Shown here: piece by piece, positions 13,756 through 40,164 of the stretch
Position numbering within the stretch: position 1 is the stretch's first letter
Layout of the letters: the number at the start of each line of letters is the position of its first letter
Assembly: GCF_006345805.1 (NCBI RefSeq)
Contig: NC_043020.1
Span: 5,642,001-5,706,000 of the forward strand
From: Octopus sinensis
Taxonomy: Eukaryota
DNA: 64,000 nt
Direction of reading: 5' to 3'
Made by a program: the position numbers and the translations under genes
The notes under the pieces: generated by a model
Database searches by the model: none
Seen by the model: only the letters and a program-made list of their open reading frames with translations
What the model was told of the DNA's origin: nothing

Positions 13756-15457
13756 TATTTCTTTACTGCCCCCCAAGGGGCTAAACATAGAGGGGACAAA
13801 CAAGGACAGACAAACGGATTAAGTCGATTATATCGACCCCAGTGCGTAACTGGTACTTAATTTATCGACCCCGAAAGGATTGAAAGGCAAAGTCGACCTC
13901 GGCGGAATTTGAACTAAAAACGCTATGGCAGACGAAATACCTATTTCTTTACTACCACACAAGGGCAAACATAGAGGGGACAAACAAGGACAGACAAACG
14001 GATTAAGTCGATTATATCGACCCCAGTGCGTAACTGGTACTTAATTTATCGACCCCGAAAGGATTGAAAGGCAAAGTCGACCTCGGCGGAATTTGAACTA
14101 AAAACGCTATGGCAGAGACGAAATACCTATTTCTTTACTACCCACAAGGGGCTAAACATAGAGGGGACAAACAAGGACAGACAAACGGATTAAGTCGATT
14201 ATATCGACCCCAGTGCGTAACTGGTACTTAATTTATCGACCCCGAAAGGATTGAAAGGCAAAGTCGACCTCGGCGGAATTTGAACTAAAAACGCTATGGC
14301 AGACGAAATACCTATTTCTTTACTACCCACAAGGGGCTAAACATAGAGGGGACAAACAAGGACAGACAAACGGATTAAGTCGATTATATCGACCCCAGTG
14401 CGTAACTGGTACTTAATTTATCGACCCCGAAAGGATTGAAAGGCAAAGTCGACCTCGGCGGAATTTGAACTAAAAACGCTATGGCAGACGAAATACCTAT
14501 TTCTTTACTACCCACAAGGGGCTAAACATAGAGGGGACAAACAAGGACAGACAAACGGATTAAGTCGATTATATCGACTCCCAGGGCGTAACTGGTACTT
14601 AATATATCGACCCCGAAAGGATTGAAAGGCAAAGTCGACCTCGGCGGAATTTGAACTAAAAACGCTATGGCAGACGAAATACCTATTTCTTTACTACCCA
14701 CAAGGGGCTAAACATAGAGGGGACAAACAAGGACAGACAAACGGATTAAGTCGATTATATCGACCCCAGTGCGTAACTGGTACTTAATTTATCGACCCCG
14801 AAGGATTGAAAGGCAAAGTCGACCTCGGCGGAATTTGAACTAAAAACGCTATGGCAGACGAAATACCTATTTCTTTACTACCCACAAGGGGCTAAACATA
14901 GAGGGGACAAACAAGGACAGACAACGGATTAAGTCGATTATATCGACCCCAGTGCGTAACTGGTACTTAATTTATCGACCCCGAAAGGATTGAAAGGCAA
15001 AGTCGACCTCGGCGGAATTTGAACTAAAAACGCTATGGCAGACGAAATACCTATTTCTTTACTACCACAAGGGGCTAAACATAGAGGGGACAAACGGAAT
15101 TAAGTCGATTATATCGACCCCAGTGCGTAACTGGTACTTAATTTATCGACCCCGAAAGGATGAAATGAAGGCAAAGTCGACTCGGCGGAATTTGAACTAA
15201 AAACGCTATGGCAGACGAAATACCTATTTCTTTACTACCCACAAGGGGCTAAACATAGAGGGGACAAACAAGGACAGACAAACGGATTAAGTCGATTATA
15301 TCGACCCCAGTGCGTAACTGGTACTTAATTTATCGACCCCGAAAGGATTGAAAGGCAAAGTCGACCTCGGCGGAATTTGAACTCAGAACGTAGCGACAGA
15401 CGAAATACGGCTACGCATTTCGCCCGGCGTGCTAACGTTTCTGCCAGCTCACCGCCC
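13756..15457 (-). repeat. Tandem array of nine SINE-M tail-B units (~185-bp period) with a single 5' head
   Basis: The head ggcggtgagctggcagaaacgttagcacgccggg occurs only at ~15457-15410. The units are joined as ...gggtagtaaagaaata|ggtatttcgtctgcc. Confidence 0.92.
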
Positions 15458-17370: not shown

Positions 17371-17891
17371 GTTTCTTTACTACCCACAAGGGGCTAAACA
17401 TAGAGGGGGACAAACAAGGACAGACAAACGGATTAAGTCGATTACATCGACCCCAGTGCGTGACTGGTACTTAATTTATCGACCCCCAAAAAGATGAAAG
17501 GCAAAGTCGACCCCGGGGGAATTTGAACTCAGAACGTAACGGCAGACGAAATACGTATTTCTTTACTACCCACAAGGGGCTAAACACAGAGAGGACAAAC
17601 AAGGACAGACAAAGGGATTAAGTCGATTATATCGACCCCAGTGCGTAACTGGTACTTATTTAATCGACTCTGAAAGGATGAAAGGCAAAGTCGACCTCGG
17701 CGGAATTTGAACTCAGAACGTAGCGGCAGACGAAATACCTATTTCTTTACTACCCACAAGGGGCTAAACACAGAGGGGACAAACAAGGACAGACAAACGG
17801 ATTAAGTCGATTATATCGACTCCAGAGCGTAACTAGTACTTATTTAATCGACCCCGAAAGGATGAAAGGCAAAGTCGACCTCGGCGGAATG
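17371..17891 (-). repeat. Three tandem SINE-M tail-B units
   Basis: Junctions gtagtaaagaaata|ggtatttcg (~17740) and gtagtaaagaaata|cgtatttcg (~17555). Confidence 0.9.
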
Positions 17892-21506: not shown

Positions 21507-22226
21507 ATTCTAGGCACAAGGCCCGTATTTTTGGAGAAGGAACCAGTTGATTAGATCGACCCAGTACGTAACTGGTTCTTACTTTATCGAACCCGAAAGG
21601 ATGAATGGCAAAGCCGACCTCAGCGGAATTTGAACTTAGAACGTAAAGACAGACGAAATACCTATTTCTTTACTACCCACAGAGGAGACAAACAAGGACA
21701 GACAAACGGATTAAGTCGATTACATCGACCCCAGTGCGTAACTGGTACTTAATTTATCGACTCCGAAAGGATGAAAGGCAAAGTCGACCTCGGCGGAATT
21801 TGAACTCAGAACGTAAAGACAGACGAAATACCTATTTCTTTACTACCCACAAGGGGCTAAACATAGAGGGGACAAACAAGGACAGACAAACGGATTAAGT
21901 CGATTATATCGACCCCAGTGCGTAACTGGTACTTAATTTATCGACTCCGAAAGGATGAAAGGCAAAGCCGACCTCGGCGGAATTTGAACTCAGACCGTAA
22001 CAGCAGACGAAATGCCGCTAAGCATTTCGCCCGACGTGTTAACGATTCTTATTTCTGTATTGCCCACAAGGGGCTAAACTCAGAGGGGACGAACAAGGAC
22101 AGACAAACGGATTAAGTCAATTATATCGACCCCAGTGCGTAACTTGAACTTAGAACGTAACGGCAGATGAAATGCCCGGTAAGCATTTCGCCCGGCGTGC
22201 TAACTATTCTGCCAGCTCGCCGCCTT
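21507..22226 (-). repeat. Nested SINE-M cluster: three tail-B units followed by one tail-A unit
   Basis: Junctions gggcaatacagaaata|agaatcgttaacacg (~22050) and gtagtaaagaaata|ggtatttcg (~21832 and ~21662). The terminal unit ends in the tail-A sequence gggccttgtgcctag. Confidence 0.88.
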
Positions 22227-22545: not shown

Positions 22546-22567
22546 GGATGCGAGCTGGCAGAAACGT
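22546..22567 (+). mobile_element. 5' stub of the SINE-M copy interrupted by the ORF1 array
   Basis: ggatgcgagctggcagaaacgt matches the SINE head ggcggcgagctggcagaaacgt. The SINE resumes at 38297. Confidence 0.8.
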
Positions 22568-22753
22568 CACCACTTCGTTTGACGTCGGTCGTGTTTTTTT
22601 ACGCTCTGTAAAATTCGGTAAAAAAGAACAAAAAGCGTTGTTGTTGTTGTGGAAATTCTGAACGGCGTTGACGCGGTTTCGCGTTTCGCTCGTTCAGCGC
22701 GTTAAACTTTTTTCTGTTTTGGCGGCCGTTTTCGGTCTGTCAGACAGAAGGAA

Positions 22754-24160
22754 ATGGACTATGAGTCTCTAACAGACTTGTCCACGACAGATGAGGAACT
22801 GGAACAGGCAATTGCAGTGAAGCTGATGGAGGAAAAGGCTGGAGTTTTCGAGTCTTTATCAGACTCGCCTACGTCTGAGAAGGAGCTAGAAATGGCAGCG
22901 AGGAATTTGGAAAAAAGCTGAGTTATACTTATGCCGGTGTAACCCGAAGCGGAAGAGAAAGGGGTCGACTTGGCCAAGCTACCAAGTTACCAGAAACACA
23001 TGAAAAAGGAAGCGGTGAGGTGGAACTATCACCGACACCCGGAGAAAAGAATGGTATGATAAGAGGACCATTGTTTACAGGGTGTGCGCAACGAAAGGAG
23101 AGGGTAGAAGTTGTATCCATGGAATGGATAGAGGAAGCCCTGCGAAGAACTGAGGAGGAAATAAATTTTCTGACTCGAGGATCCAAGTACGGGACCGTAG
23201 TTGTGCACTTTAAAAGTGAATCTGCAGCGAGGAAGATGGCAGCGAAGGCGGTGAAGTCGGAAAAGGTAACACTGTTACCTACGTATTTAAACAGGAGGAT
23301 TACACGAATAAGGGTGGAGGGAGTGCCACCAACGTGGAGGCAGAATGGATTGTGGCGGCTGTGATCAGCGGCCACGAGGACGAAGTGGATATTCTCCATG
23401 CCTCGGTTAAGTCCGAGGGCTGGAGAGGCGTAACAGTGGAGCTGAACGTACAGGCAGAGACCGAGGTACTGGTGGACCTGACGGAAAGCATCAGACTGGG
23501 AGAAGTGATCATGAGAGTGTGGGTGGAGGGCAGGGCTCCACGTTGTTACAAGTGTGGCCTGAGGGGTCACATAAGAGCCTTCTGCCCTCCCCCAGGGAAA
23601 GAAATGGATCCCGAACCAGAGAGAGAGAAGCAGAAACCAGAGGAGAAGGAAACAGAGGAAGAGAATACACAGAAATGGAAGGAAGCTGGAAGTAAGAGGA
23701 AGAGAAGAATACGTGGAAAAAAAATATATGAACTCCAATCCACCCCAAAACCACCCACGCCCTCTGAGTCCCACCCTATCCATGCAGACATTGAACCCAC
23801 CCCTCCCCCCCAACAAGAAAACAAAAGAAAAAAAAGAATACACACACACAAGAGATTGAATCGATATCAGGATCAGGCCGTACATTTGTACTATGACTGA
23901 ACAGAAGAAGTTAAAAGTCTAATGGAAGAGTATAAATGGTATGATGTTGGTGAGACTAGGTATGCTGTGATTGAAAAGAAGAACATAGGTGACTTTATGG
24001 TGATGTGTGAATGCGAGAATTGGGAGGTGAAAGATATAAGAATGAGCGATGAATTCGTGGAAAATATGGATGAGTATTTCGGAGTAAGAATGGATATGGA
24101 TTTGTTCGTATTGGCAAGGAACATTCAAGTGACTATGAAAAACAAAGGACAGGTAGTTGA
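22754..24160 (+). CDS. ORF1-like CCHC zinc-knuckle protein, unit 1 (several frameshifts)
   Basis: Collinear with unit 8 and retains CYKCGLRGHIRAFC. Many indels fall in homopolymer runs. Confidence 0.55.
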
Positions 24161-24505
24161 TGCTGACGGACGGGGCCGTTGGTATCGCTTTCATTTAATT
24201 ATCATTTTTTCGTTTAACAATTCATGTTCATAAAGTTTAATTATAATGTTATGTCCCCATGTTTCTTAGTGTCCCTTTCTGTGTCGCCCCTAGTGGGTAA
24301 TAAAGAAATAAGAAACGCCACCACTTCGTTTGACGTCGGTCGTGTTTTTTTACGCGCTCTGTAAAATTCGGTAAAAAAGAACAAAAAGCGTGGTTGTTGT
24401 TGTGGAAATTCTGAACGGCGTTGACGCGGTTTCGCGTTTCGCTCGTTCAGCGCGTTAACTTTTTTCTGTTTTGGCGGCCGTTTTCGGTCTGTCAGACAGA
24501 AGGAA

Positions 24506-25904
24506 ATGGACTATGAGTCTCTAACAGACTTGTCCACGACAGATGAGGAACTGGAACAGGCAATTGCAGTGAAGCTGATGGAGGAAAAGGCTGGATTTTC
24601 GAGTCTTTATCAGACTTGTCTGAGAAGGAGCTAGAAATGGCAGCAAGGAAATTGGAAAAGAAGCTGAGTTATACTTATGCCGTGTAACCAAGAAGGCGGA
24701 GAGAAAGGGGTCGACTTGGCCAAGCTACCAAGTTACCAGAAACACATGAAAAAGGAAAGCGGTGAGGTGGAACTATCACCGACACCCAGGAGAAAAGAAT
24801 GGTATGATAAGAGGACCATTGTTTACAGGGTGTTCGCAAACGAAAGGAAGAGGGTAGAAGTTGTAACCATGGAATGGATAGAGGAAGCCCTGCGAAGAAC
24901 TGAGGAGGAAATAAATTTTCTGACTCGAGGATCCAAGTATGGGACCGTAGTTGTGCATTTTAAAAGTGAATCTGCAGCGAGGAAGATGGCAGCGAAGGCG
25001 GTGAAGTCGGAAAAGGTAACACTGTTACCTACGTATTTAAACAGGAGGATTACACGAATAAGGGTGGAGGGTGCCACCAAACGTGGAGGCAGAATGGATT
25101 GTGGCGGCTGTGATCAGCGGCCACGAGGACGAAGTGGATATTCCCATGCCTCGGTTAAGTCCGAGGGCTGGAGAGGCGTAACAGTGGAGCTGAACGTACA
25201 GGCAGAGACCGAGGTACTGGTGGACCTGACGGAAAGCATCAGACTGGGAGAAGTGATCATGAGAGTGTGGGTGGAGGGCAGGGCTCCACGTTGTTACAAG
25301 TGTGGCCTGAGGGGTCACATAAGAGCCTTCTGCCCTCCCCCAGGGAAAGAAATGGATCCCGAACCAGAGAGAGAGAAGCAGAAACCAAGGAGAAGGAAAC
25401 AGAGGAAGAGAATACACAGAAATGGAAGGAAGCTGGAAGTAAGAGGAAGAGAAGAATACGTGGAAAAGAAAATAATATGGAACTCCAATCCACCCCAAAA
25501 CCACCCACGCCTCTGAGTCCCACCCTATCCATGCAGACATTGAACCCACCCGCTCCCCCCCAACAAGAAAACAAAAGAAAAAAAAGAATACACACACACA
25601 AGAGATTGAAATCGATATCAGGCCGTACATTTGTACTATGACTGAACAGAAAGAAGTTAAAAGTCTAATGGAAGAGTATAAATGGTATGATGTTGGTGAG
25701 ACTAGGTATGCTGTGATTGAAAAGAAGAACATAGGTGACTTTATGGTGATGTGTGAATGCGAGAATTGGGAGGTGAAAGATATAAGAATGAGCGATGAAT
25801 TCGTGGAAAATATGGATGAGTATTTCGGAGTAAGATGGATATGGAATTTGTTCGTATTGGCAAGGAACATTCAGTGACTATGAAAAACAAAGACAGGTAA
25901 GTGA
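24506..25904 (+). CDS. ORF1-like CCHC protein, unit 2 (frameshifted)
   Basis: Collinear with unit 8; fragments 24677-25516, 25267-25641 and 25638-25877 in the ORF track. Confidence 0.55.
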
Positions 25905-26247
25905 TGCTGACGGACGGGGCCGTTGGTATCGCTTTCATTTAATCATTTTTTCGTTTAACAATCCATGTTCATAAAGTTTAATTATAATGTTATATGTCCC
26001 CATGTTTCTTAGTGTCCCTTTCTGTGTCGCCCCTAGTGGGTAATAAAGAAATAAGAAACGCCACCACTTCGTTTGACGTCGGTCGTGTTTTTTTACGCTC
26101 TGTAAAATTCGGTAAAAAAGAACAAAAAGCGTGGTTGTTGTTGTGGAAATTCTGAACGGCGTTGACGCGGTTTCGCGTTTCGCTCGTTCAGCGCGTTAAA
26201 CTTTTTTCTGTTTTGGCGGCAGTTTTCGGTCTGTCAGACAGAAGGAA

Positions 26248-27650
26248 ATGGACTATGAGTCTCTAACAGACTTGTCCACGACAGATGAGGAACTGGAACA
26301 GGCAATTGCAGTGAAGCTGATGGAGGAAAAGGCTGGAGTTTTCGAGTCTTTATCAGACTTGTCTGAGAAGGAGCTAGAAATGGCAGCAAGGAATTCGGAA
26401 AAGAAGCTGAGTTATACTTATGCCGGTGTAACCAAGAAGGCGGAAGAGAAAGGGGTCGACTTGGCCAAGCTACCAAGTTACCAGAAACACATGAAAAAGG
26501 AAAGCGGTGAGGTGGAACTATCACCGACACCCAGGAGAAAAGAATGGTATGATAAGAGGACCATTGTTTACAGGGTGTTCGCAAACGAAAGGAAGAGGGT
26601 AGAAGTTGTAACCATGGAATGGATAGAGGAAGCCCTGCGAAGAACTGAGGAGGAAATAAATTTTCTGACTCGAGGATCCAAGTATGGGACCGTAGTTGTG
26701 CATTTTAAAAGTGAATCTGCAGCGAGGAAGATGGCGGCGAAGGCGGTGAAGTCGGAAAAGGTAACACTGTTACCTACGTATTTAAACAGGAGGATTACAC
26801 GAATAAGGGTGGAGGGAGTGCCACCAAATGTGGAGGCAGAATGGATTGTGGCGGCTGTGATCAGCGGCCACGAGGACGAAGTAGATATTCTCCATGCCTC
26901 GGTTAAGTCCGAGGGCTGGAGAGGCGTAACAGTGGAGCTGAACGTACAGGCAGAGACCGAGGTACTGGTGGACCTGACGGAAAGCATCAGACTGGGAGAA
27001 GTGATCATGAGAGTGTGGGTGGAGGGCAGGGCTCCACGTTGTTACAAGTGTGGCTGAGGGGTCACATAAGAGCCTTCTGCCCTCCCCCAGGGAAAGAAAT
27101 GGATCCGAACCAGAGAGAGAGAAGCAAAACCAGAGGAGAAGGAAACAGAGGAAGAGAATACACAGAAATGGAAGGGCTGGAAGTAAGAGGAAGAGAAGAA
27201 TACGTGAAAAGAAAATAATATGGAACTCCAATCCACCCCAAAACCACCCACGCCTCTGAGTCCCACCCTACCCATGCAGACATTGAACCCACCCGCTCCC
27301 CCCCAACAAGAAAACAAAAGAAAAAAAAGAATACACACACACAAGAGATTGAAAACGATATCAGGATGTACATTTGTACTATGACTGAACAGAAAGAAGT
27401 TAAAAGTCTAATGGAAGAGTATAAATGGTATGATGTTGGTGAGACTAGGTATGCTGTGATTGAAAAGAAGAACATAGGTGAGTTTATGGGGAGGTGTGAA
27501 AGGAAGAATTGGGAGGTGAAAGATATAAGAATGAGCGATGAATTCGTGGAAAACATGGATGAGTATTTCGGAGTAAGAATGGATATGGAATTTATTCGTA
27601 TTGGCAAAGAACATTCAAGTGACTATGAAAAACAAAGGACAGGTAAGTGA
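26248..27650 (+). CDS. ORF1-like CCHC protein, unit 3 (frameshifted after aa 269)
   Basis: ORFs 26248-27057 and 27366-27650 give the consensus N- and C-termini (MDYESL... and ...EKQRTGK*). Confidence 0.6.
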
Positions 27651-27992
27651 TGCTGACGGACGGGGCCGTTGGTATCGCTTTCATTTAATCATTTTTTCGT
27701 TTAACAATTCATGTTCATAAAGTTTAATTATAATGTTATATGTCCCCATGTTTCTTAGTGTCCTTTCTGTGTCGCCCCTAGTGGGTAATAAAGAAATAAG
27801 AAACGCCACCACTTCGTTTGACGTCGGTGTGTTTTTTTCGGCTCCTGAAAATTCGGTAAAAAAGAACAAAAAAGCGTTGTTGTTGTTGTGGAAATTCTGA
27901 ACGGCGTTGACGCGGTTTCGCGTTTCGCTCGTTCAGCGCGTTAAACTTTTTTCTGTTTTGGCGGCCGTTTTCGGTCTGTCAGACAGAAGGAA

Positions 27993-29396
27993 ATGGACTA
28001 TGAGTCTCTAACAGACTTGTCCACGACAGATGAGGAACTGGAACAGGCAATTGCAGTGAAGCTGATGGAGGAAAAGGCTGGAGTTTTCGAGTCTTTATCA
28101 GACTCGCCTACGTCTGAGAAGGAGCTAGAAATGGCAGCGAGGAATTTGGAAAGAAGCTGAGTTATACTTATGCCGGTGTAACCAAGAAGGCGGAAGAGAA
28201 AGGGGTCGACTTGGCCAAGCTACCAAGTTACCAGAACACATGAAAAAGGAAAGCGGTGAGGTGGAACTATCACCGACACCCAGGAGAAAAGAATGGTATG
28301 ATAAGAGGACCATTGTTTACAGGGTGTGCGCAAACGAAAGGAAGAGGGTAGAAGTTGTATCCATGGAATGGATAGAGGAAGCCCTGCGAAGAACTGAGGA
28401 GGAAATAAATTTTCTGACTCGAGGATCCAAGTACGGGACCGTAGTTGTGCACTTTAAAAGTGAATCTGCAGCGAGAAGATGGCAGCGAAGGCGGTGAAGT
28501 CGGAAAAGGTAACACTGTTACCTACGTATTTAAACAGGAGGATTACACGAATAAGGGTGGAGGGAGTGCCACCAAACGTGGAGGCAGAATGGATTGTGGC
28601 GGCTGTGATCAGCGGCCACGAGGACGAAGTGGATATTCTCCATGCCTCGGTTAAGTCCGAGGGCTGGAGAGGCGTAACAGTGGAGCTGAACGTACAGGCA
28701 GAGACCGAGGTACTGGTGGACCTGACGGAAAGCATCAGACTGGGAGAAGTGATCATGAGAGTGTGGGTGGAGGGCAGGGCTCCACGTTGTTACAAGTGTG
28801 GCCTGAGGGGTCACATAAGAGCCTTCTGCCCTCCCCCAGGGAAAGAATGGATCCCGAACCAGAGAGAGAGAAGCAGAAACCAGAGGAGAAGGAAACAGGA
28901 GAGAATCACAGAGAATGGAAGGAAGCTGGAAGTAAGAGGAAGAGAAGAATACGTGGAAAAGAAAATAATATGGAACTCCAATCCACCCCAAAACCACCCA
29001 CGCCCTCTGAGTCCCACCCTACCCATGCAGACATTGAACCCACCCCTCCCCCCAACAAAAAACAAAAGAAAAAAAAGAATACAAACACACAAGAGATTGA
29101 AAACGATATCAGGATGTACATTTGTACTATGACTGAACAGAAAGAAGTTAAAAGTCTAATGGAAGAGTATAAATGGTATGATTTGGTGAGACTAGGTATG
29201 CTGTGATTGAAAAGAAGAACATAGGTGAGTTTATGGGAAGGTGAAATGCGAGAATTGGGAGGTGAAAGATATAAGAATGAGCGATGAATTCGTGGAAAAT
29301 ATGGATGAGTATTTCGGAGTAAGAATGGATATGGAATTTGTTCGTATTGGCAAGGAACATTCAAGTGACTATGAAAAACAAAGGACAGGTAAGTGA
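27993..29396 (+). CDS. ORF1-like CCHC protein, unit 4 (frameshifted)
   Basis: Collinear with unit 8; fragments 28240-28497, 28479-29132 and 28763-29206. Confidence 0.55.
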
Positions 29397-29730
29397 TGCT
29401 GACGGACGGGGCCGTTGGTATCGCTTTCATTTAATCATTTTTTCGTTTAACAATTCATGTTCATAAAGTTTAATTATAATGTTCTATGTCCCCATGTCTT
29501 TTGGTGTCCCCTTCTGTGTCGCCCCTAGTGGGTAATAAAGAAATCACCACTTCGTTTGACGTCGGTTGTGTTTTTTTCGGCTCCTGAAAATTCGGTAAAA
29601 AAGAACAAAAAGCGGGGTTGTTGTTGTGGAAATTCTGAACGGCGTTGACGCGGTTTCGCGTTTCGCTCGTTCAGCGCGTTAAACTTTCTTCTGTTTTGGC
29701 GGCCGTTTTCGGTCTGTCAGACAGAAGGAA

Positions 29731-31136
29731 ATGGACTATGAGTCTCTAACAGACTTGTCCACGACAGATGAGGAACTGGAACAGGCAATTGCAGTGAAGC
29801 TGATGGAGGAAAAGCTGGAGATTTCGAGTCTTTATCAGACTTGTCTGCGTCTGAGAAGGAGCTAGAAATGGCAGCAAGGAAATTGGAAAAGAAGCTGAGT
29901 TATACTTATGCCGGTGTAACCAAGAAGGCGGAAGAGAAAGGGGTCGACTTGGCCAAACTACCAAGTTACCAGAAACACATGAAAAAGGAAAGCGGTGAGG
30001 TGGAACTATCACCGACACCAGGAGAAAAGAATGGTATGATAAGAGGACCATTGTTTACAGGGTGTTCGCAACGAAGGAAGAGGGTAGAAGTTGTAACCAT
30101 GGAATGGATAGAGGAAGCCCTGCGAAGAACTGAGGAGGAAATAAATTTTCTGACTCGAGGATCCAAGTATGGGACCGTAGTTGTGCATTTTAAAAGTGAA
30201 TCTGCAGCGAGGAAGATGGCGGCGAAGGCGGTGAAGTCGGAAAAGGTAACACTGTTACCTACGTATTTAAACAGGAGGATTACACGAATAAGGGTGGAGG
30301 GAGTGCCACCAAACGTGGAGGCAGAATGGATTGTGGCGGCTGTGATCAGCGCCACGAGGACGAAGTAGATATTCTCCATGCCTCGGTTAAGTCCGAGGGC
30401 TGGAGAGGCGTAACAGTGGAGCTGAACGTACAGGCAGAGACCGAGGTACTGGTGGACCTGACGGAAAGCATCAGACTGGGAGAAGTGATCATGAGAGTGT
30501 GGGTGGAGGGCAGGGCTCCACGTTGTTACAAGTGTGGCCTGAGGGGTCACATAAGAGCCTTCTGCCCTCCCCCAGGGAAAGAAATGGATCCCGAACCAGA
30601 GAGAGAGAAGCAGAAACCAGAGGAGAAGGAAACAGAGGAAGAGAATACACAGAAATGGAAGGAAGCTGGAAGTAAGAGGAAGAGAAGAATACGTGGAAAA
30701 GAAAATAATATGGAACTCCAATCCACCCCAAAACCACCCACGCCCTCTGAGTCCCACCCTATCCATGCAGACATTGAACCCACCCGCTCCCCCCCAACAA
30801 GAAAACAAAAGAAAAAAAAGAATACACACACACAAGAGATTGAAATCGATATCAGCCGTACATTTGTACTATGACTGAACAGAAAGAAGTAAAAGTCTAA
30901 TGGAAGAGTATAAATGGTATGATGTTGGTGAGACTAGGTATGCTGTGATTGAAAAGAAGAACATAGGTGACTTTATGGTGATGTGTGAATGCGAGAATTG
31001 GGAGGTGAAAGATATAAAGAGCGATGAATTCGTGGAAAATATGGATGAGTATTTCGGAGTAAGAATGGATATGGAATTTGTTCGTATTGGCAAGGAACAT
31101 TCAAGTGACTATGAAAAACAAAGGACAGGTAAGTGA
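29731..31136 (+). CDS. ORF1-like CCHC protein, unit 5 (frameshifted)
   Basis: Fragments 29841-30368, 30326-30874 and 30900-31136. Confidence 0.55.
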
Positions 31137-31479
31137 TGCTGACGGACGGGGCCGTTGGTATCGCTTTCATTTAATCATTTTTTCGTTTACAATTCATGTT
31201 CATAAAGTTTAATTATAATGTTATATGTCCCCATGTTTCTTAGTGTCCTTTCTGTGTCGCCCCTAGTGGGTAATAAAGAAATAGAAACGTCACCACTACT
31301 TCGTTTGACGTCGGTTGTGTTTTTTTCGGCTCCTGAAAATTCGGTAAAAAAGAACAAAAAGCGTGGTTGTTGTTGTGGAAACTCTGAACGGCGTTGACGC
31401 GGTTTCGCGTTTCGCTCGTTCAGCGCGTTAAACTTTTTTCTGTTTTGGCGGCCGTTTTCGGTCTGTCAGACAGAAGGAA

Positions 31480-32888
31480 ATGGACTATGAGTCTCTAACA
31501 GACTTGTCCACGACAGATGAGGAACTGGAACAGGCAATTGCAGTGAAGCTGATGGAGGAAAAGGCTGGAGTTTTCGAGTCTTTATCAGACTTGTCTGAGA
31601 AGGAGCTAGAAATGGCAGCAAGGAATTCGGAAAAGAAGCTGAGTTATACTTATGCCGGTGTAACCAAGAAGGCGGAAGAGAAAGGGGTCGACTTGGCCAA
31701 GCTACCAAGTTACCAGAAACACATGAAAAAGGAAAGCGGTGAGGTGGAACTATCACCGACACCCAGGAGAAAAGAATGGTACGATAAGAGGACCATTGTT
31801 TACAGGGTGTTCGCAAACGAAAGGAAGAGGTAGAAGTTGTAACCATGGAATGGATAGAGGAAGCCCTGCGAAGAACTGAGGAGGAAATAAATTTTCTGAC
31901 TCGAGGATCCAAGTATGGGACCGTAGTTGTGCATTTTAAAAGTGAATCTGCAGCGAGGAAGATGGCGGCGAAGGCGGTGAAGTCGGAAAAGGTAACACTG
32001 TTACCTACGTATTTAAACAGGAGGATTACACGAATAAGGGTGGAGGGAGTGCCACCAAACGTGGAGGCAGAATGGATTGTGGCGGCTGTATCAGCGGCCA
32101 CGAGGACGAAGTAGATATTCTCCATGCCGGTTAAGTCTGAGGGCTGGAGAGGCGTAACAGTGGAGCTGAACGTACAGGCAGAGACCGAGGTACTGGTGGA
32201 CCTGACGGAAAGCATCAGACTGGGAGAAGTGATCATGAGAGTGTGGGTGGAGGGCAGGGCTCCACGTTGTTACAAGTGTGGCCTGAGGGGTCACATAAGA
32301 GCCTTCTGCCCTCCCCCAGGAAAGAAATGGATCCCGAACCAGAGAGAGAAGCAGAAACCAGAGGAGAAGGAAACAGAGGAAGAGAATACACAGAAATGGA
32401 AGGAAGCTGGAAGTAAGAGGAAGAGAAGAATACGTGGAAAAGAAAATAATATGGAACTCCAATCCACCCCAAAACCACCCACGCCCTCTGAGTCCCACCC
32501 TATCCATGCAGACATTGAACCCACCCCACCCGCTCCCCCCCAACAAGAAAACAAAAGAAAAAAAAGAATACACACACACAAGAATTGAATCGATATCATA
32601 TCAGGCCGTACATTTGTACTATGACTGAACAAAAGAAGTTAAAAGTCTAATGGAGAGTATAAATGGTATGATGTTGGTGAGACTAGGTATGCTGTGATTG
32701 AAAAGAAGAACATAGGTGACTTTATGGTGATGTGTGAATGCGAGAATTGGGAGGTGAAAGATATAAGAATGAGCGATGAATTCGTGGAAAATATGGATGA
32801 GTATTTCGGAGTAAGAATGGATATGGAATTTGTTCGTATTGGCAAGGAACATTCAAGTGACTATGAAAAACAAAGGACAGGTAAGTGA
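31480..32888 (+). CDS. ORF1-like CCHC protein, unit 6 (frameshifted)
   Basis: Fragments 31480-31833, 31845-32114, 32124-32588 and 32694-32888. Confidence 0.55.
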
Positions 32889-33235
32889 TGCTGACGGACG
32901 GGGCCGTTGGTATCGCTTTCATTTATAATCATTTTTTCGTTTAACAATTCATGTTCATAAAGTTTAATTATAATGTTATATGTCCCCATGTTTCTTAGTG
33001 TCCCTTTCTGTGTCGCCCCTAGTGGTAATAAAGAAATAAGAAACGCACCACTTCGTTTGACGTCGGTCGTGTTTTTTTACGCTCTGTAAAATTCGGTAAA
33101 AAAGAACAAAAAGCGTGGTTGTTGTTGTGGAAATTCTGAACGGCGTTGACGCGGTTTCGCGTTTCGCTCGTTCAGCGCGTTAAACTTTTTTCTTTTTTGT
33201 TTTGCGGCCGTTTTCGGTCTGTCAGACAGAAGGAA

Positions 33236-34637
33236 ATGGACTATGAGTCTCTAACAGACTTGTCCACGACAGATGAGGAACTGGAACAGGCAATTGCAGT
33301 GAAGCTGATGGAGGAAAAGGCTGGAGTTTTCGAGTCTTTATCAGACTTGTCTGAGAAGGAGCTAGAAATGGCAGCAAGGAAATTGGAAAAGAAGCTGAGT
33401 TATACTTATGCCGGTGTAACCAAGAAGGCGGAAGAGAAAGGGGTCGACTTGGCCAAGCTACCAAGTTACCAGAAACACATGAAAAAGGAAAGCGGTGAGG
33501 TGGAACTATCACCGACACCCAGGAGAAAAGAATGGTATGATAAGAGGACCATTGTTTACAGGGTGTGCGCAAACGAAAGGAAGAGGGTAGAAGTTGTATC
33601 CATGGAATGGATAGAGGAAGCCCTGCGAAGAACTGAGGAGGAAATAAATTTTCTGACTCGAGGATCCAAGTACGGGACCGTAGTTGTGCACTTTAAAAGT
33701 GAATCTGCAGCGAGGAAGATGGCAGCGAAGGCGGTGAAGTCGGAAAAGGTAACACTGTTACCTACGTATTTAAACAGGAGGATTACACGAATAAGGGTGG
33801 AGGGAGTGCCACCAAACGTGGAGGCAGAATGGATTGTGGCGGCTGTGATCAGCGGCCACGAGGACGAAGTAGATATTCTCCATGCCTCGGTTAAGTCCGA
33901 GGGCTGGAGAGGCGTAACAGTGGAGCTGAACGTACAGGCAGAGACCGAGGTACTGGTGGACCTGACGGAAAGCATCAGACTGGGAGAAGTGATCATGAGA
34001 GTGTGGGTGGAGGGCAGGGCTCCACGTTGTTACAAGTGTGGCCTGAGGGGTCACATAAGAGCCTTCTGCCCTCCCCCAGGGAAAGAAATGGATTCCGAAC
34101 CAGAGAGAGAGAAGCAGAAACCAGAGGAGAAGGAAACAGAGAAGAGAATACACAGAAATGGAAGGAAGCTGGAAGTAAGAGGAAGAGAAGAATACGTGGA
34201 AAAGAAAACAATATGGAACTCCAATCCACCCCAAAACCACCCACGCCCTCTGAGTCCCACCCTACCCATGCAGACATTGAACCCACCCGCTCCCCCCCAA
34301 CAAGAAAACAAAAGAAAAAAAAGAATACACACACACAAGAGATTGAAAACGATATCAGGATGTACATTTGTACTATGACTGAACAGAAAGAAGTTAAAAG
34401 TCTAATGGAAGAGTATAAATGGTATGATGTTGGTGAGACTAGGTATGCTGTGATTGAAAAAAGAACATAGGTGAGTTTATGGTGTGTGAAAGGAAGAATT
34501 GGGAGGTGAAAGATATAAGAATGAGCGATGAATTCGTGGAAAAGGATGAGTATTTCGGAGTAAGAATGGATATGGAATTTGTTCGTATTGGCAAAGAACA
34601 TTCAAGTGACTATGAAAAACAAAGGACAGGTAAGTGA
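33236..34637 (+). CDS. ORF1-like CCHC protein, unit 7 (frameshifts in the 3' third)
   Basis: Open from MDYESL through the knuckle to EEKETE (~34140), then shifts frame. Confidence 0.65.
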
Positions 34638-34979
34638 TGCTGACGGACGGGGCCGTTGGTATCGCTTTCATTTAATCATTTTTTCGTTTAACACATTCAT
34701 GTTCATAAAGTTTAATTATAATGTTATATGTCCCCATGTTTCTTAGTGTCCCTTTCTGTGTCGCCCCTAGTGGGTAATAAAGAAATAAGAAACGTCACCA
34801 CTTCGTTTGACGTCGGTGTGTTTTTTTCGGCTCCTGAAAATTCGGTAAAAAAGAACAAAAAGCGTGTTGTTGTTGTGGAAATTCTGAACGGCGTTGACGC
34901 GGTTTCGCGTTTCGCTCGTTCAGCGCGTTAAACTTTTTTCTGTTTTGGCGGCCGTTTTCGGTCTGTCAGACAGAAGGAA

Positions 34980-36396
34980 ATGGACTATGAGTCTCTAACA
35001 GACTTGTCCACGACAGATGAGGAACTGGAACAGGCAATTGCAGTGAAGCTGATGGAGGAAAAGGCTGGAGTTTTCGAGTCTTTATCAGACTCGCCTACGT
35101 CTGAGAAGGAGCTAGAAATGGCAGCGAGGAATTTGGAAAAGAAGCTGAGTTATACTTATGCCGGTGTAACCAAGAAGGCGGAAGAGAAAGGGGTCGACTT
35201 GGCCAAGCTACCAAGTTACCAGAAACACATGAAAAAGGAAAGCGGTGAGGTGGAACTATCACCGACACCCAGGAGAAAAGAATGGTATGATAAGAGGACC
35301 ATTGTTTACAGGGTGTGCGCAAACGAAAGGAAGAGGGTAGAAGTTGTATCCATGGAATGGATAGAGGAAGCCCTGCGAAGAACTGAGGAGGAAATAAATT
35401 TTCTGACTCGAGGATCCAAGTACGGGACCGTAGTTGTGCACTTTAAAAGTGAATCTGCAGCGAGGAAGATGGCAGCGAAGGCGGTGAAGTCGGAAAAGGT
35501 AACACTGTTACCTACGTATTTAAACAGGAGGATTACACGAATAAGGGTGGAGGGAGTGCCACCAAACGTGGAGGCAGAATGGATTGTGGCGGCTGTGATC
35601 AGCGGCCACGAGGACGAAGTAGATATTCTCCATGCCTCGGTTAAGTCCGAGGGCTGGAGAGGCGTAACAGTGGAGCTGAACGTACAGGCAGAGACCGAGG
35701 TACTGGTGGACCTGACGGAAAGCATCAGACTGGGAGAAGTGATCATGAGAGTGTGGGTGGAGGGCAGGGCTCCACGTTGTTACAAGTGTGGCCTGAGGGG
35801 TCACATAAGAGCCTTCTGCCCTCCCCCAGGGAAAGAAATGGATCCCGAACCAGAGAGAGAGAAGCAGAAACCAGAGGAGAAGGAAACAGAGGAAGAGAAT
35901 ACACAGAAATGGAAGGAAGCTGGAAGTAAGAGGAAGAGAAGAATACGTGGAAAAGAAAATAATATGGAACTCCAATCCACCCCAAAACCACCCACGCCCT
36001 CTGAGTCCCACCCTATCCATGCAGACATTGAACCCACCCGCTCCCCCCCAACAAGAAAACAAAAGAAAAAAAAGAATACACACACACAAGAGATTGAAAA
36101 CGATATCAGGATGTACATTTGTACTATGACTGAACAGAAAGAAGTTAAAAGTCTAATGGAAGAGTATAAATGGTATGATGTTGGTGAGACTAGGTATGCT
36201 GTGATTGAAAAGAAGAACATAGGTGAGTTTATGGGGATGTGTGAAAGCGAAGAATTGGGAGGTGAAAGATATAAGAATGAGCGATGAATTCGTGGAAAAC
36301 ATGGATGAGTATTTCGGAGTAAGAATGGATATGGAATTTATTCGTATTGGCAAAGAACATTCAAGTGACTATGAAAAACAAAGGACAGGTAAGTGA
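34980..36396 (+). CDS. ORF1-like (Tx1/L1-type) RRM + CCHC zinc-knuckle protein, unit 8, the best copy; ~471 aa after removing one extra base near 36248
   Basis: Acidic N-terminus, SYTYAGV motif, RRM-like YGTVVVHFKSESAARKM and RIRVEGVPPNVEAEWI, then RVWVEGRAPR-CYKCGLRGHIRAFC (CX2CX4HX4C). A basic/Pro linker (KRKRR) precedes an ~90-aa C-terminal region. ATG to consensus TGA is 1417 nt, i.e. 472 codons plus 1. Confidence 0.8.
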
Positions 36397-36739
36397 TGCT
36401 GACGGACGGGGCCGTTGGTATCGCTTTCATTTAATCATTTTTTCGTTTAACAATTCATGTTCATAAAATTTAATTATAATGTTATATGTCCCCATGTTTC
36501 TTAGTGTCCCTTTCTGTGTCGCCCCTAGTGGGTAATAAAGAAATAAGAAACGTTAGCACGTCGTTTGACGTCGGTTGTGTTTTTTTCGGCTCCTGAAAAT
36601 TCGGTAAAAAAGAACAAAAAGCGTGGTTGTTGTTGTGGAAATTCTGAACGGCGTTGACGCGGTTTCGCGTTTCGCTCGTTCAGCGCGTTAAACTTTTTTC
36701 TGTTTTGGCGGCCGTTTTCGGTCTGTCAGACAGAAGGAA

Positions 36740-38148
36740 ATGGACTATGAGTCTCTAACAGACTTGTCCACGACAGATGAGGAACTGGAACAGGCAATTG
36801 CAGTGAAGCTGATGGAGGAAAAGGCTGGAGTTTTCGAGTCTTTATCAGACTCGCCTACGTCTGAGAAGGAGCTAGAAATGGCAGCGAGGAATTTGGAAAA
36901 GAAGCTGAGTTATACTTATGCCGGTGTAACCAAGAAGGCGGAAGAGAAAGGGGTCGACTTGGCCAAGCTACCAAGTTACCAGAAACACATGAAAAAGGAA
37001 AGCGGTGAGGTGGAACTATCACCGACACCCAGGAGAAAAGAATGGTATGATAAGAGGACCATTGTTTACAGGGTGTGCGCAAACGAAAGGAAGAGGGTAG
37101 AAGTTGTATCCATGGAATGGATAGAGGAAGCCCTGCGAACTGAGGAGGAAATAAATTTTCTGACTCGAGGATCCAAGTACGGGACCGTAGTTGTGCACTT
37201 TAAAAGTGAATCTGCAGCGAGGAAGATGGCAGCGAAGGCGGTGAAGTCGGAAAAGGTAACACTGTTACCTACGTATTTAAACAGGAGGATTACACGAATA
37301 AGGGTGGAGGGAGTGCCACCAAACGTGGAGGCAGAATGGATTGTGGCGGCTGTGATCAGCGGCCACGAGGACGAAGTAGATATTCTCCATGCCTCGGTTA
37401 AGTCTGAGGGCTGGAGAGGCGTAACAGTGGAGCTGAACGTACAGGCAGAGACCGAGGTACTGGTGGACCTGACGGAAAGCATCAGACTGGGAGAAGTGAT
37501 CATGAGAGTGTGGGTGGAGGGCAGGGCTCCACGTTTGTTACAGTGTGGCCTGAGGGGTCACATAAGAGCCTTCTGCCCTCCCCCAGGGAAAGAAATGGAT
37601 CCCGAACCAGAGAGAGAGAAGCAGAAACCAGAGGAGAAGGAAACAGAGGAAGAGAATACACAGAAATGGAAGGAAGCTGGAAGTAAGAGGAAGAGAAGAA
37701 TACGTGGAAAAGAAAATAATATGGAACTCCAATCCACCCCAAAACCACCCACGCCCTCTGAGTCCCACCCTATCCATGCAGACATTGAACCCACCCGCTC
37801 CCCCAACAAGAAAACAAAAGAAAAAAAAGAATACACACACACAGAGATTGAAAACGATATCAGGATGTACATTTGTACTATGACTGAACAGAAAGAAGTT
37901 AAAAGTCTAATGGAAGAGTATAAATGGTATGATGTTGGTGAGACTAGGTATGCTGTGATTGAAAAGAAGAACATAGGTGAGTTTATGGGGAGGTGTGAAA
38001 GGAAGAATGGGAGGTGAAAGATATAAGAATGAGCGATGAATTCGTGGAAAACATGGATGAGTATTTCGGAGTAAGAATGGATATGGAATTTATTCGTATT
38101 GGCAAAGAACATTCAAGTGACTATGAAAAACAAAGGACAGGTAAGTGA
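36740..38148 (+). CDS. ORF1-like protein, unit 9 (425 aa open, late frameshift, knuckle locally shifted)
   Basis: ORF 36740-38017. Compensating indels change RCYKC to RLLQC. Confidence 0.7.
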
Positions 38149-38296
38149 TGCTGACGGACGGGGCCGTTGGTATCGCTTCATTTAATCATTTTTTCGTTTA
38201 ACAATTCATGTTCATAAAATTTAATTATAATGTTATATGTCCCCATGTTTCTTAGTGTCCCTTTCTGTGTCGCCCCTAGTGGGTAATAAAGAAATA

Positions 38297-38870
38297 AGAA
38301 ACGTTAGCACGCCGGGTGAAATGCTTAGTGGTATTTCGTCTGCCATTACGGTCTGAGTTCAAATTCCGCCGAGGTCGACTTCGCCTTTCATCCTTTCGGG
38401 GTCGATAAATTAAGTACCAGTTATGCACTGGTGTCGATATAATCAACTTAATCCGTTTGTCTGTCCTTGTTTGTCCTCTCTGTGTTTGGCCCCTTGTGGG
38501 TAGTAAAGAAATAGAAATTTCTGACTGCCGTTACGTTGTGAGTTCAAATTCCGCCGAGGTCGACCTTGCCTTTCATCCTTTCGGCGGTCGATTAAATAAG
38601 TACCAGTTACGCACTGGGGTCGATGTAATCGACTTAATCCGTTTGTCTGTCTTCGTTTGTCCTCTCTATGTTTAGCTCCTTGTGGCTAGTAAAGAAATAG
38701 GTATTTCGTCTGCCGTTACGTTCTAAGTTCAAATTTCGCCTAGGTCGACTTTGCCTTTCATCTTTTCAGGATCGATAAATTAAGTACCAGCTAAAAATTT
38801 GGGTCGATGTAATCGACTTACCCTCGCCCTCGTAACTGTGGACCTTGTAACAAAAAATTTAAAGCCAATA
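38297..38870 (+). mobile_element. Remainder of the interrupted SINE-M: two tail-B units followed by a tail-A unit
   Basis: agaaacgttagcacgccgggtgaaatgc, B-box gagttcaaattcc and the SINE core. Tail-B ends lie at ~38513 and ~38699, and a tail-A-like end (gaccttgtaacaaaaaattt) at ~38860. Confidence 0.88.
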
Positions 38871-39042
38871 TAAAGATAGATTATGAGCGAGTTGAAAGAG
38901 AGGGAGGGGACTGAGTCTGCTTCCCTCCACCCCTGTTCCTTGGAATAGCTCAAAAATATGGAATTACTCTCGAAGCTGCTGTTTCAAGCTCTAATAAATA
39001 GACAAACTACTAGAAAAAAAGAAGTCGTTTTCACAGCTCAAA

Positions 39043-40164
39043 ATGGTTAAACGATTACCGTTACACATAGTGAATAGTATTTCTTGGATTTTGCAGCTGA
39101 TTTTATTTTCTTCATCAGTCGCTTTGATAATCTACTCTATCGCTAACGATGTCTGTGTATGTTCAGATGTAGGTTTGTTATGTGATCTAGACAGGCCACA
39201 TATCTACTACAATTGCTCTGCGGCAGGAAATCGACCGACTTTAGAAACTTGTCCGTCTGGGCAGCGATTCGATGTCTTTCGTGGAGTCTGCCTTCTTCCA
39301 TGTGATGTTGTCGAATGTTTGAAAGGGAGAGAGCTTCGTAAAAAATTTTATTTTCCAAATAAGTGTCGTTTTAATTTTTCTTCGCCATTATCGACTTCAT
39401 TTACGGAAAACTTGCAGAATGGGTGTTCTACAACTGCCACTGATGGTCAAAATTTATCCACTGCTGTTGATGTAAGTCCATCTAATTCGCTGACAAAGAA
39501 AATATTGACAAAGGTATCATTCGCAGACGACGATGTGGCTGTCAATCTTGTGAACTCCTCATACAACTTGTCCATACAAAATGATGACCAGTCGTTTCAG
39601 ATCGTCTCTGAGGAGTTAAAATTGAACGAAACTGCCACAGTCTCTCAACTCCTTCCCGTTAATAACCCAGCTAACACGACTAATGAATTGGAGACATTTA
39701 CCAGTCGTACTACGCCAACGTTGAAGTCGTTTACAAGAGAAAACCTATCAACAGAGAAGTCTCCCACTAACGTTACTCGAGCGGAATCAGTCCAACATGA
39801 ATTAAATTCTAAAGTCGAATCGAATTTGAGCCCCACCGAAGAAAACGGAGAGAAACGAAATCGAACTCAGTTTGAACCGTTGAATAATAGAACTGTTACT
39901 GCAAGAACAGGGACACCCCTATGGAAAGAGTTCGGTCTCCAGTCTCGTCAGCAACGAGATAAACTTGTGCAGCTGTGTAAACAAGGGTCGACATTTCTCT
40001 GCGATTCTTCGGACCGTTCAGTCTTTTACCGCTGCTTTAACAATCGGCCTTACCGCTACATTTGTCCAAAACCATTACTCTTCGATTCCAATATAAAAGA
40101 ATGTAGTCGCAATAAGAATGCGGTCTGTTTGCCGTCCATGGATTGGCGGCGTTTGGAAAAATAA
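39043..40164 (+). CDS. Secreted or membrane-anchored protein with two chitin-binding type-2 (peritrophin-A/CBM14-like) domains and a Ser/Thr-rich linker
   Basis: 373-aa ORF with a hydrophobic N-terminus. Two Cys motifs (C...IYYNC...TCPSGQRFDVFRGVC and C...VFYRCFNNRPYRYICPKPLLFDSNIKEC...C) flank an S/T/N/E-rich spacer. The start is uncertain because there is a possible splice acceptor, ttttgcag, at ~39096. Confidence 0.8.
   Translation: MVKRLPLHIVNSISWILQLILFSSSVALIIYSIANDVCVCSDVGLLCDLDRPHIYYNCSAAGNRPTLETCPSGQRFDVFRGVCLLPCDVVECLKGRELRKKFYFPNKCRFNFSSPLSTSFTENLQNGCSTTATDGQNLSTAVDVSPSNSLTKKILTKVSFADDDVAVNLVNSSYNLSIQNDDQSFQIVSEELKLNETATVSQLLPVNNPANTTNELETFTSRTTPTLKSFTRENLSTEKSPTNVTRAESVQHELNSKVESNLSPTEENGEKRNRTQFEPLNNRTVTARTGTPLWKEFGLQSRQQRDKLVQLCKQGSTFLCDSSDRSVFYRCFNNRPYRYICPKPLLFDSNIKECSRNKNAVCLPSMDWRRLEK

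Follow-up and report, generated by a model that had tools for sequence, protein, structure and literature searches.

Between positions 22568 and 38296 of a 64,000-nucleotide stretch of the Octopus sinensis genome (contig NC_043020.1, positions 5,642,001 to 5,706,000; hereafter the window), nine units of ~1.73–1.75 kb stand head to tail on the plus strand, which raises the question of how such an array is assembled and at which end it grows. We find that the units are copies of a Tx1/L1-type family of non-LTR (long terminal repeat) retrotransposons which encode only the first open reading frame (ORF1), and that they lie within a single short interspersed nuclear element (SINE). The array was probably built from right to left by repeated insertion, with unit 9 as the founder.

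Nine units and their junctions

The tails of the units, AATAAAGAAAT, end at 24309, 26052, 27797, 29544, 31282, 33037, 34786, 36544 and 38295, and the bases which follow them differ between the junctions (J1–J8). J1–J3 read A-AGAAACG-C-CACCACT, J6 reads A-AGAAACG-CACCACT and J7 reads A-AGAAACGT-CACCACT; at J4 the head CACCACT follows immediately, and J5 is AGAAACGT-CACCACTACT. At J8 the tail is followed by A-AGAAACGTTAGCACG and then by TCGTTTGAC, the head of unit 9, which is without CACCACT. The 15-mer is present exactly at 36546–36560 and again at 38297–38311. A preliminary description of this DNA had listed the same strings and the same 15-mer; the extent which it gave, 24301..38311, takes in the junctions, with unit 1 and the left flank (22560–22567) falling outside it. 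The features of the array are as follows, A1 and A2 being subfamilies of tail.

22550..22559, plus strand: 5' remnant of the interrupted SINE (GCGAGCTGGC), matched in the intact SINE heads at about 15428 and 19942 of the minus strand
22560..22567, plus strand: left junction AGAAACGT
22568..24310, plus strand: unit 1, family A, tail A1, probably the last arrival
24311..24318, plus strand: J1, AGAAACGC
24319..26053, plus strand: unit 2, tail A1; closest relative in array C2d
26054..26061, plus strand: J2, AGAAACGC
26062..27798, plus strand: unit 3, tail A1
27799..27806, plus strand: J3, AGAAACGC
27807..29544, plus strand: unit 4, tail A2, abutting the head of unit 5 directly (J4)
29545..31282, plus strand: unit 5, tail A1
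31283..31290, plus strand: J5, AGAAACGT; the absent A before it and the additional ACT behind it are possible assembly errors
31291..33038, plus strand: unit 6, tail A1
33039..33045, plus strand: J6, AGAAACG, possibly with a one-base assembly deletion
33046..34787, plus strand: unit 7, tail A1; closest relative the single copy C7a
34788..34795, plus strand: J7, AGAAACGT, the most frequent junction across arrays
34796..36545, plus strand: unit 8, tail A1
34932..36287, plus strand: ORF1-like frame of unit 8, 451 residues from stop to stop, with a CCHC knuckle and without reverse transcriptase
36546..36560, plus strand: J8, left copy of the 15-mer target duplication, a form which recurs at C5d, C1d and C4b
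36561..38296, plus strand: unit 9, tail A1, probable founder
38297..38513, plus strand: right copy of the 15-mer and remainder of the SINE

When short-read contigs are compared with the window units, single-base deletions in the assembly resemble errors; an additional G behind 34140, for example, is at near-full depth in three of four runs and was seen in the fourth as well. For this reason J5 and J6 are uncertain in their one-base features, which may themselves be assembly errors. Contigs of 4 of the 24 runs were compared with J7, and none among those listed spans a junction or resolves the junction variants. The continuation from a tail into the SINE is present in contigs of two runs (22 and 19 contigs).

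The target is an abundant SINE

The array sits within an abundant SINE at GCTGGC|AGAAACGTTAGCACG, with one SINE head divided into GCGAGCTGGC-AGAAACGT on its left and AGAAACGTTAGCACGCCGGG on its right. Intact heads elsewhere in the window (minus strand, 15428 and 19942), which the preliminary description did not mention, also carry the 15-mer. It is therefore target sequence, and not the constant part of the element which that description had considered as an alternative. The 23-base target site has 28,669 exact copies in the genome. Fourteen arrays and seven single copies occupy the same SINE site genome-wide, with stacks of up to 14 units in which families A, B and a 5.3-kb unit are mixed within one array; one flank is unclear or missing in C5b, C5c, C12979 and C9380. 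These loci were located by the head motif (75 exact matches at 20 genome loci), not by flank sequence, and we examined all 20 together with the loci of a further search and 16 of 40 additional loci from broader motifs.

The SINE combines high copy number with a tail like that of a long interspersed nuclear element, and its final ~40 bases to the right of the array are similar to the unit tail (84% over 38 bases). An Rfam search with the SINE returned no match and no transfer RNA (tRNA), and a likeness to A and B boxes was seen by eye only. Candidates for its identity would be the tRNA-derived octopus SINEs OK, OR1 and OR2; no octopus SINE sequence was found in the parts consulted of PMC4758252 and PMC3531059.

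The SINE also occurs in 184-base tandem runs of its own at 13756–15442, 17372–17890, 21545–22053 (minus strand) and 38297–38820, in which the tail is joined to GGTATTTCG ~40 bases into the next copy. The run at 13756–15442 has a complete head at its 5' end, and at 22053 a SINE tail meets the same AGAA(T)CG site as the array. There are 30,649 exact tail-to-GGTATTTCG junctions in the genome.

ORF1-only passengers and a 5.3-kb partner

Unit 8 contains a single long frame, with a CCHC knuckle which scores below the Pfam cut-off and without reverse transcriptase (RT). Pfam returned nothing above cut-off for the unit ORF1, and a homolog search found relatives in four Octopus proteins only. Four other arrays start with a 5.3-kb unit that encodes ORF1 along with an endonuclease, an RT and a zf-RVT domain (Exo_endo_phos, E=1e-10; RVT_1, E=1e-31; zf-RVT, E=3e-10). 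By these domains, with ORF1 upstream of an ORF2 containing endonuclease and RT, it is a non-LTR retrotransposon of the apurinic/apyrimidinic endonuclease type. It occupies the same SINE site as the short units and has the first ~70 and last ~30 bases in common with them (84% identity over 74 bases at the head, 97% over 30 bases at the tail); the two ORF1 sequences are 40% identical over 184 residues. The short units are therefore ORF1-only passengers, and the existence of a partner with endonuclease, RT and the same ends lends support to target-primed reverse transcription, the route proposed in the preliminary description. The short units divide in the main into two families: A, 1.75 kb long, and B, 1.67 kb long, which are 68% identical in their middle part.

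Only one name among the 120 listed of 133 matches to the partner is informative, 'Transposon TX1 uncharacterized 149 kDa protein' (E=7e-92, 32% identity), so that membership of the Tx1 clade is no more than likely. Preference for a repeated target is a Tx1-like trait (21 loci at one SINE site, with related subfamilies at other recurrent sites). In having ORF1, lacking ORF2 and having ends in common with an autonomous partner, the units look to work like HAL1; we do not class them as HAL1, since the partner looks Tx1-like.

Several relatives were seen alongside. Two more ORF1-only families of ~2 kb, with a common head and tail end and little else in common, are rightmost in their arrays at the right ends of C2b (L049) and C8600 (L069). 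A second autonomous family, ~80% identical to the partner, forms 5.25-kb tandem arrays at L105, L112, L113, L115, L117 and L119-L120; its junctions begin ACATGGAGGAAA and a 20-mer from its ORF2 has 987 matches with at most one mismatch. Copies 96–97% identical to the partner are inserted at a different repeat (TGGCATGGTTTGTCCGAT) at L110 and L108, the former with an 18-base duplication at the insertion and a 5' end unlike the partner's.

Direction of growth

We compared 70 neighbouring junction pairs from 13 arrays, leaving out one spurious match in C2c and array C9380. A long junction, marked by TTAGCAC, stands to the left of another long junction in 10 pairs, a short to the left of a long in five and a long to the left of a short in one; the long form is thus lost leftwards five times and gained once. 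A long junction needs an intact target, and as an array grows it can therefore disappear but scarcely return, so this polarity supports the earlier proposal that unit 9 came first and that the array extended leftwards. Long junctions form a block at the right end in four of five mixed arrays (p=0.0006), or in two of three (p=0.049) without the two arrays where they belong to a third family; five of the seven single copies carry one, and seven of 12 rightmost junctions are of this form.

Inner junctions copy the left junction in C6, C2b, C2a and C6b. In C6 and C2b a rare G flanks the 5.3-kb unit on both sides, the inner junction of C2a contains an 18-base local duplication plus AAGAAACGT, and eight junctions of C6b repeat the left one; in C2c the local SINE variant AGAATCG is in every junction. 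In C3c, C3e and C16 the tail of the left unit breaks into the body of the right one at a motif resembling the site where it normally joins, although the C16 joint could alternatively derive from a 5'-truncated first insertion, and the tail-to-body joints of C9b, C18 and C10211 show no comparably clean motif match. Neighbouring units are also more alike in their first 350 bases (p=0.0004 globally, 0.028 within arrays).

Our initial reading was the reverse, namely that new copies enter at the intact site downstream (tail|AGAAACGTTAGCACG) and that the founder is the unit furthest to the left, in many cases the 5.3-kb partner. Most window junctions (J5–J8 and the left flank) are prefixes of the intact target, the partner is leftmost in the four SINE arrays with such a unit, and private changes are more numerous on the left, all as rightward growth would have it. 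Under that scheme, however, long junctions should be common and independent of their neighbours, whereas the left-hand junction is long in 10 of 15 pairs whose right-hand one is long and in 1 of 55 pairs whose right-hand one is short; in C6, C2b, C2a and C6b it is the left flank, and not the right, that inner junctions match, and behind each of the 11 A2 tails comes a head. Contradicted by the other arrays, rightward growth is very unlikely.

Several observations nevertheless weigh against leftward growth. The polarity was first noticed in the window and C3a, which makes its test partly post hoc, and the similarity of neighbours does not differ significantly between their 5' and 3' parts (p=0.12, 0.19). 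Private substitutions are commoner in left units (rho -0.32, p=0.008, n=66), also when A-to-G changes are removed (rho -0.29, p=0.018), a gradient opposite to that expected if the left units are youngest. A comparison of divergence with array position, as the preliminary description had suggested, thus goes the other way, although it is confounded with errors: rare deletions, probably errors, seem by inspection commoner on the left in several arrays, and assembly quality may explain the excess. The 5.3-kb partner is leftmost in all four SINE arrays holding it, which suits a founder role. The window left flank has T where J1 has C, C2b regains AGAAACGT to the left of a junction without it, and C2d has a long-type junction second from the right; these junctions need bases borne by the RNA. 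Units 8 and 9 differ by a mere seven substitutions and could be a local duplication, and none of the nine window units contains an A-to-G cluster of the kind described below. Taking both sides together, we still consider right-to-left insertion probable. The left-flank variant AAAAACG in C9, once taken for a chimera proving leftward order, was dropped from the argument, being found at C12979 and C4b also; it may be a SINE variant.

Probable separate insertion of the units

Across the 75 family-A units compared, only 19 of the 68 in multi-unit arrays have their nearest relative in their own array, and non-adjacent units of one array are no closer than units from different arrays. In the window, six of nine units have their nearest relative solely on another contig, units 3 and 8 tie, and units 8 and 9 are close to each other. 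Different families alternate within arrays. Homogenisation within arrays, as expected of a satellite evolving by unequal exchange, was not found in these 75 units. The suggestion that the identical J1–J3 reflect local duplication does not hold, with units 1–4 differing from one another by 21–52 substitutions and the nearest relatives of units 1, 2 and 4 lying on other contigs. Window units 1 and 3, like most other family-A units, are mosaics of a few haplotype blocks shared across chromosomes, a pattern suggesting that template switching or gene conversion is frequent.

Of 99 units examined (75 A, 24 B), five, all in other arrays, contain dense sense-strand clusters of 19–79 A-to-G changes each, in C5c (L056-L057), C12979 (L035), C9b (L091) and C9 (L061). 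A-to-G makes up 47/47 and 26/26 of the rare changes in two C5c units and 79/82, 29/34 and 19/21 in three B units; 19 A3/A5 and seven A4 units show at most six such changes. The fraction of A changed depends on the 5' neighbour (T 0.47, A 0.35, C 0.17, G 0.05; p=4e-27), and G is enriched on the 3' side (p=0.02). The preference of ADAR, as given in PMC5663115, is for edited A with G depleted 5' and enriched 3', and the clusters fit this footprint in their clustering, their strand and their bias on both sides. They are confined to single units and absent from adjoining ones; single units therefore passed through RNA. The clusters are apparently edited RNA fixed in the genome. For human L1 RNA, the assay of PMC5224506 found no editing. 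Insertions spread over generations and insertions in one episode are both compatible with our data.

These observations bear on two further explanations. Expansion of a dimer at the DNA level (through unequal crossing-over or a rolling circle) or an error of assembly would account for runs of identical junctions (J1–J3; the whole of C5c), for the near identity of units 8 and 9, for mosaic haplotypes and for indel errors, and the Drosophila R1 array is so interpreted in 10.1101/158386. We judge this very unlikely here: arrays are not homogenised and alternate between families, the units behind identical junctions differ (all seven in C5c), edited units have no exact duplicates, and the tail-to-SINE continuation is found in the short-read contigs of two runs. 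In a one-step concatemer, RT on reaching the 5' end of an RNA would jump to the 3' end of a further one, or else would copy a multi-unit read-through RNA, such that the genomic site is used once and inner junctions derive from RNA ends. This would explain the excess of insertions over chance (see below), tail-to-head junctions without duplication (J4; 6/6 in C12), the C2a heads carrying AAGAAACGT, the surplus of same-family neighbours and the presence of two hyper-edited units within one array. It is nonetheless unlikely, because inner junctions hold locus-specific target (the C2a 18-mer, AGAATCG in C2c), A-to-G clusters stop at the borders of single units, and neither right-end polarity nor tails joined inside neighbouring units are predicted by it.

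Why the junctions differ

Tails were classified in 158 cases, with 19 unclassified. A1 tails continue as ATAAGAA in 50/62 cases, A2 tails as ATCACCA in 10/11 and B1 tails as ATCAGAA in 11/22, and every one of 11 A2 tails runs into a head. Unit 4 carries an A2 tail, which explains J4. In C2a, AAGAAACGT is found on a head at a non-SINE site, and part of the junction therefore travels with the RNA. The junctions are thus not pure records of target duplication, as they had been read at first: the bases behind a tail follow its subfamily, and AGAAACGT travels with the head (C2a). Long junctions have three forms, CAC|TTCG, CACG|TCG and CACGCCG|TTTG, which would mark the three positions where crossover can occur within a single imperfect target–head match.

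One 5.3-kb copy, which has changes at 4 of 213 endonuclease residues, is inserted at a different target. One of these residues lies in a target-contacting loop, and the effects of enzyme and RNA on targeting are for that reason not separable.

Sister subfamilies stack at three further recurrent targets: ttttaatc-acca (L040, L043, L044, L046, L104), tgtagagaaaaaa (L037, L039, L042, L085, L090, L091) and gaccaacatgtgtcccc (L093, L094, L099).

Return to occupied sites and a proposed mechanism

Tails are joined to the SINE site 1,499 times in the genome, and at least 28,669 perfect sites are empty. With random choice of site, less than one site with three insertions and ~1e-13 with nine would be expected; occupied sites must therefore attract further insertions. 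Of the earlier suggestion that later copies reuse a regenerated upstream site, leftward reuse is supported and sufficiency is not. Homology to the resident copy as the source of attraction agrees with the similarity of neighbours at their 5' ends and with the excess of same-family neighbours (58/67 observed, 41 when shuffled); reloading of the same complex at one nick in one cell would also fit.

In the mechanism we propose, the stack would represent separately retrotransposed ORF1-only copies of a Tx1/L1-type element within one SINE. The partner protein would nick at GCTGG(C)|AGAAACG and prime on the RNA 3' end, with a handful of matching bases to assist (..ATAAGA at the end of A1 tails, ..ATCA(CC) at that of A2 tails), after which the end of the complementary DNA (cDNA) would pair with sequence downstream of the nick. 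In an empty SINE this would yield a 14–18 base junction (target CACGCCG in register with head CACTTCG), whereas at an occupied site the cDNA end would pair with the resident head, so that the left junction would be copied or shortened. J4 would represent an A2-type RNA joined at the head of unit 5. Every round would shift older units to the right, and new copies would be drawn far more strongly to a site with a resident copy than to an empty site, via homology or reloading of the complex at the nick.

More tentatively, the element RNA could carry its own landing site. The tail contains AATAAA and the head of the next unit is GU-rich, so stack transcripts would end a few bases into the junction and may start there too. 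If this were true, target choice would be inherited through RNA ends, one enzyme would serve subfamilies with different sites, occupied sites would become self-reinforcing, and the clan would write ADAR-edited RNA back into the octopus germ-line genome; the same clan may also build the ~30,000 SINE-in-SINE junctions. The competing possibility is that several partner endonucleases exist, each with one site.

Relation to known systems

Telomeric HeT-A/TART arrays of Drosophila grow from one end, and HeT-A encodes ORF1 only. The octopus arrays resemble them in their head-to-tail mixture of autonomous and non-autonomous elements and probably in one-ended growth, and differ in being interstitial, within a SINE and accompanied by target duplications.

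Tx1 elements that target other transposons are known, and sequential tandem insertions with target duplication have been reported for SINEU-3 (PMC4494074). Like crocodilian Tx1-Mar/SINEU-3, the octopus elements prefer a site inside another transposon which non-autonomous partners also use, and their tandem insertions sandwich a target duplication and are interpreted as sequential; unlike them, the target is a SINE sharing the clan's tail, and the passengers are 1.7-kb ORF1-coding units in mixed-family stacks of up to 14. Drosophila R1 tandems and double insertion have also been described (10.1101/158386). These too are head-to-tail non-LTR copies with duplicated target between them, but their 33-base duplications are identical and their expansion is attributed there to unequal exchange, whereas octopus junctions vary and are polarised and the units are not homogenised. 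HAL1 (half-L1; PMC5753468) is likewise a non-autonomous derivative coding for ORF1 only. It was described from mammalian L1, whereas the octopus units are without poly(A), site-specific and tandem, and their ORF1 is merely 40% identical to that of the partner found. In R1Bm and SART1Bm, short RNA 3' sequences matching the target aid priming, and R1Bm is said to need downstream target (PMC7265360). Similar pairing of RNA and target at priming is suggested for octopus by junction statistics only, and here, unlike in R1Bm and SART1Bm, several subfamilies have differing 3' ends and differing sites.

In Octopus vulgaris, 13 recently active L1-Tx1 families have been described, with no mention of targets or editing in the main text (PMC13282606); the repeat library of that study may already contain the present families. 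A literature search on this family, its target or edited genomic copies found nothing, with Repbase, supplements and most subscription papers outside its range. That tandem arrays can arise when target-specific insertion is repeated is, as a basic idea, already in the literature; what raises this case above the ordinary is a return to occupied sites that lacks an explanation, together with footprints of editing in sister arrays. Each stack would be an ordered record of up to 14 separate retrotranspositions at one base, so that natural products would show how 5' joining and 3' priming proceed. That insertions return so strongly to occupied sites, when tens of thousands stand empty, implies that target regeneration is insufficient, and allows a role for homology of RNA or cDNA to be tested. 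Should raw reads confirm the A-to-G clusters, these would mean that edited RNA enters the inherited genome of a heavily editing animal.

A neighbouring frame

Some 700 bases to the right of the array, 38998–40164 (plus strand) contains a single frame of 388 residues with a chitin-binding peritrophin-A domain (CBM_14, E=4e-09).

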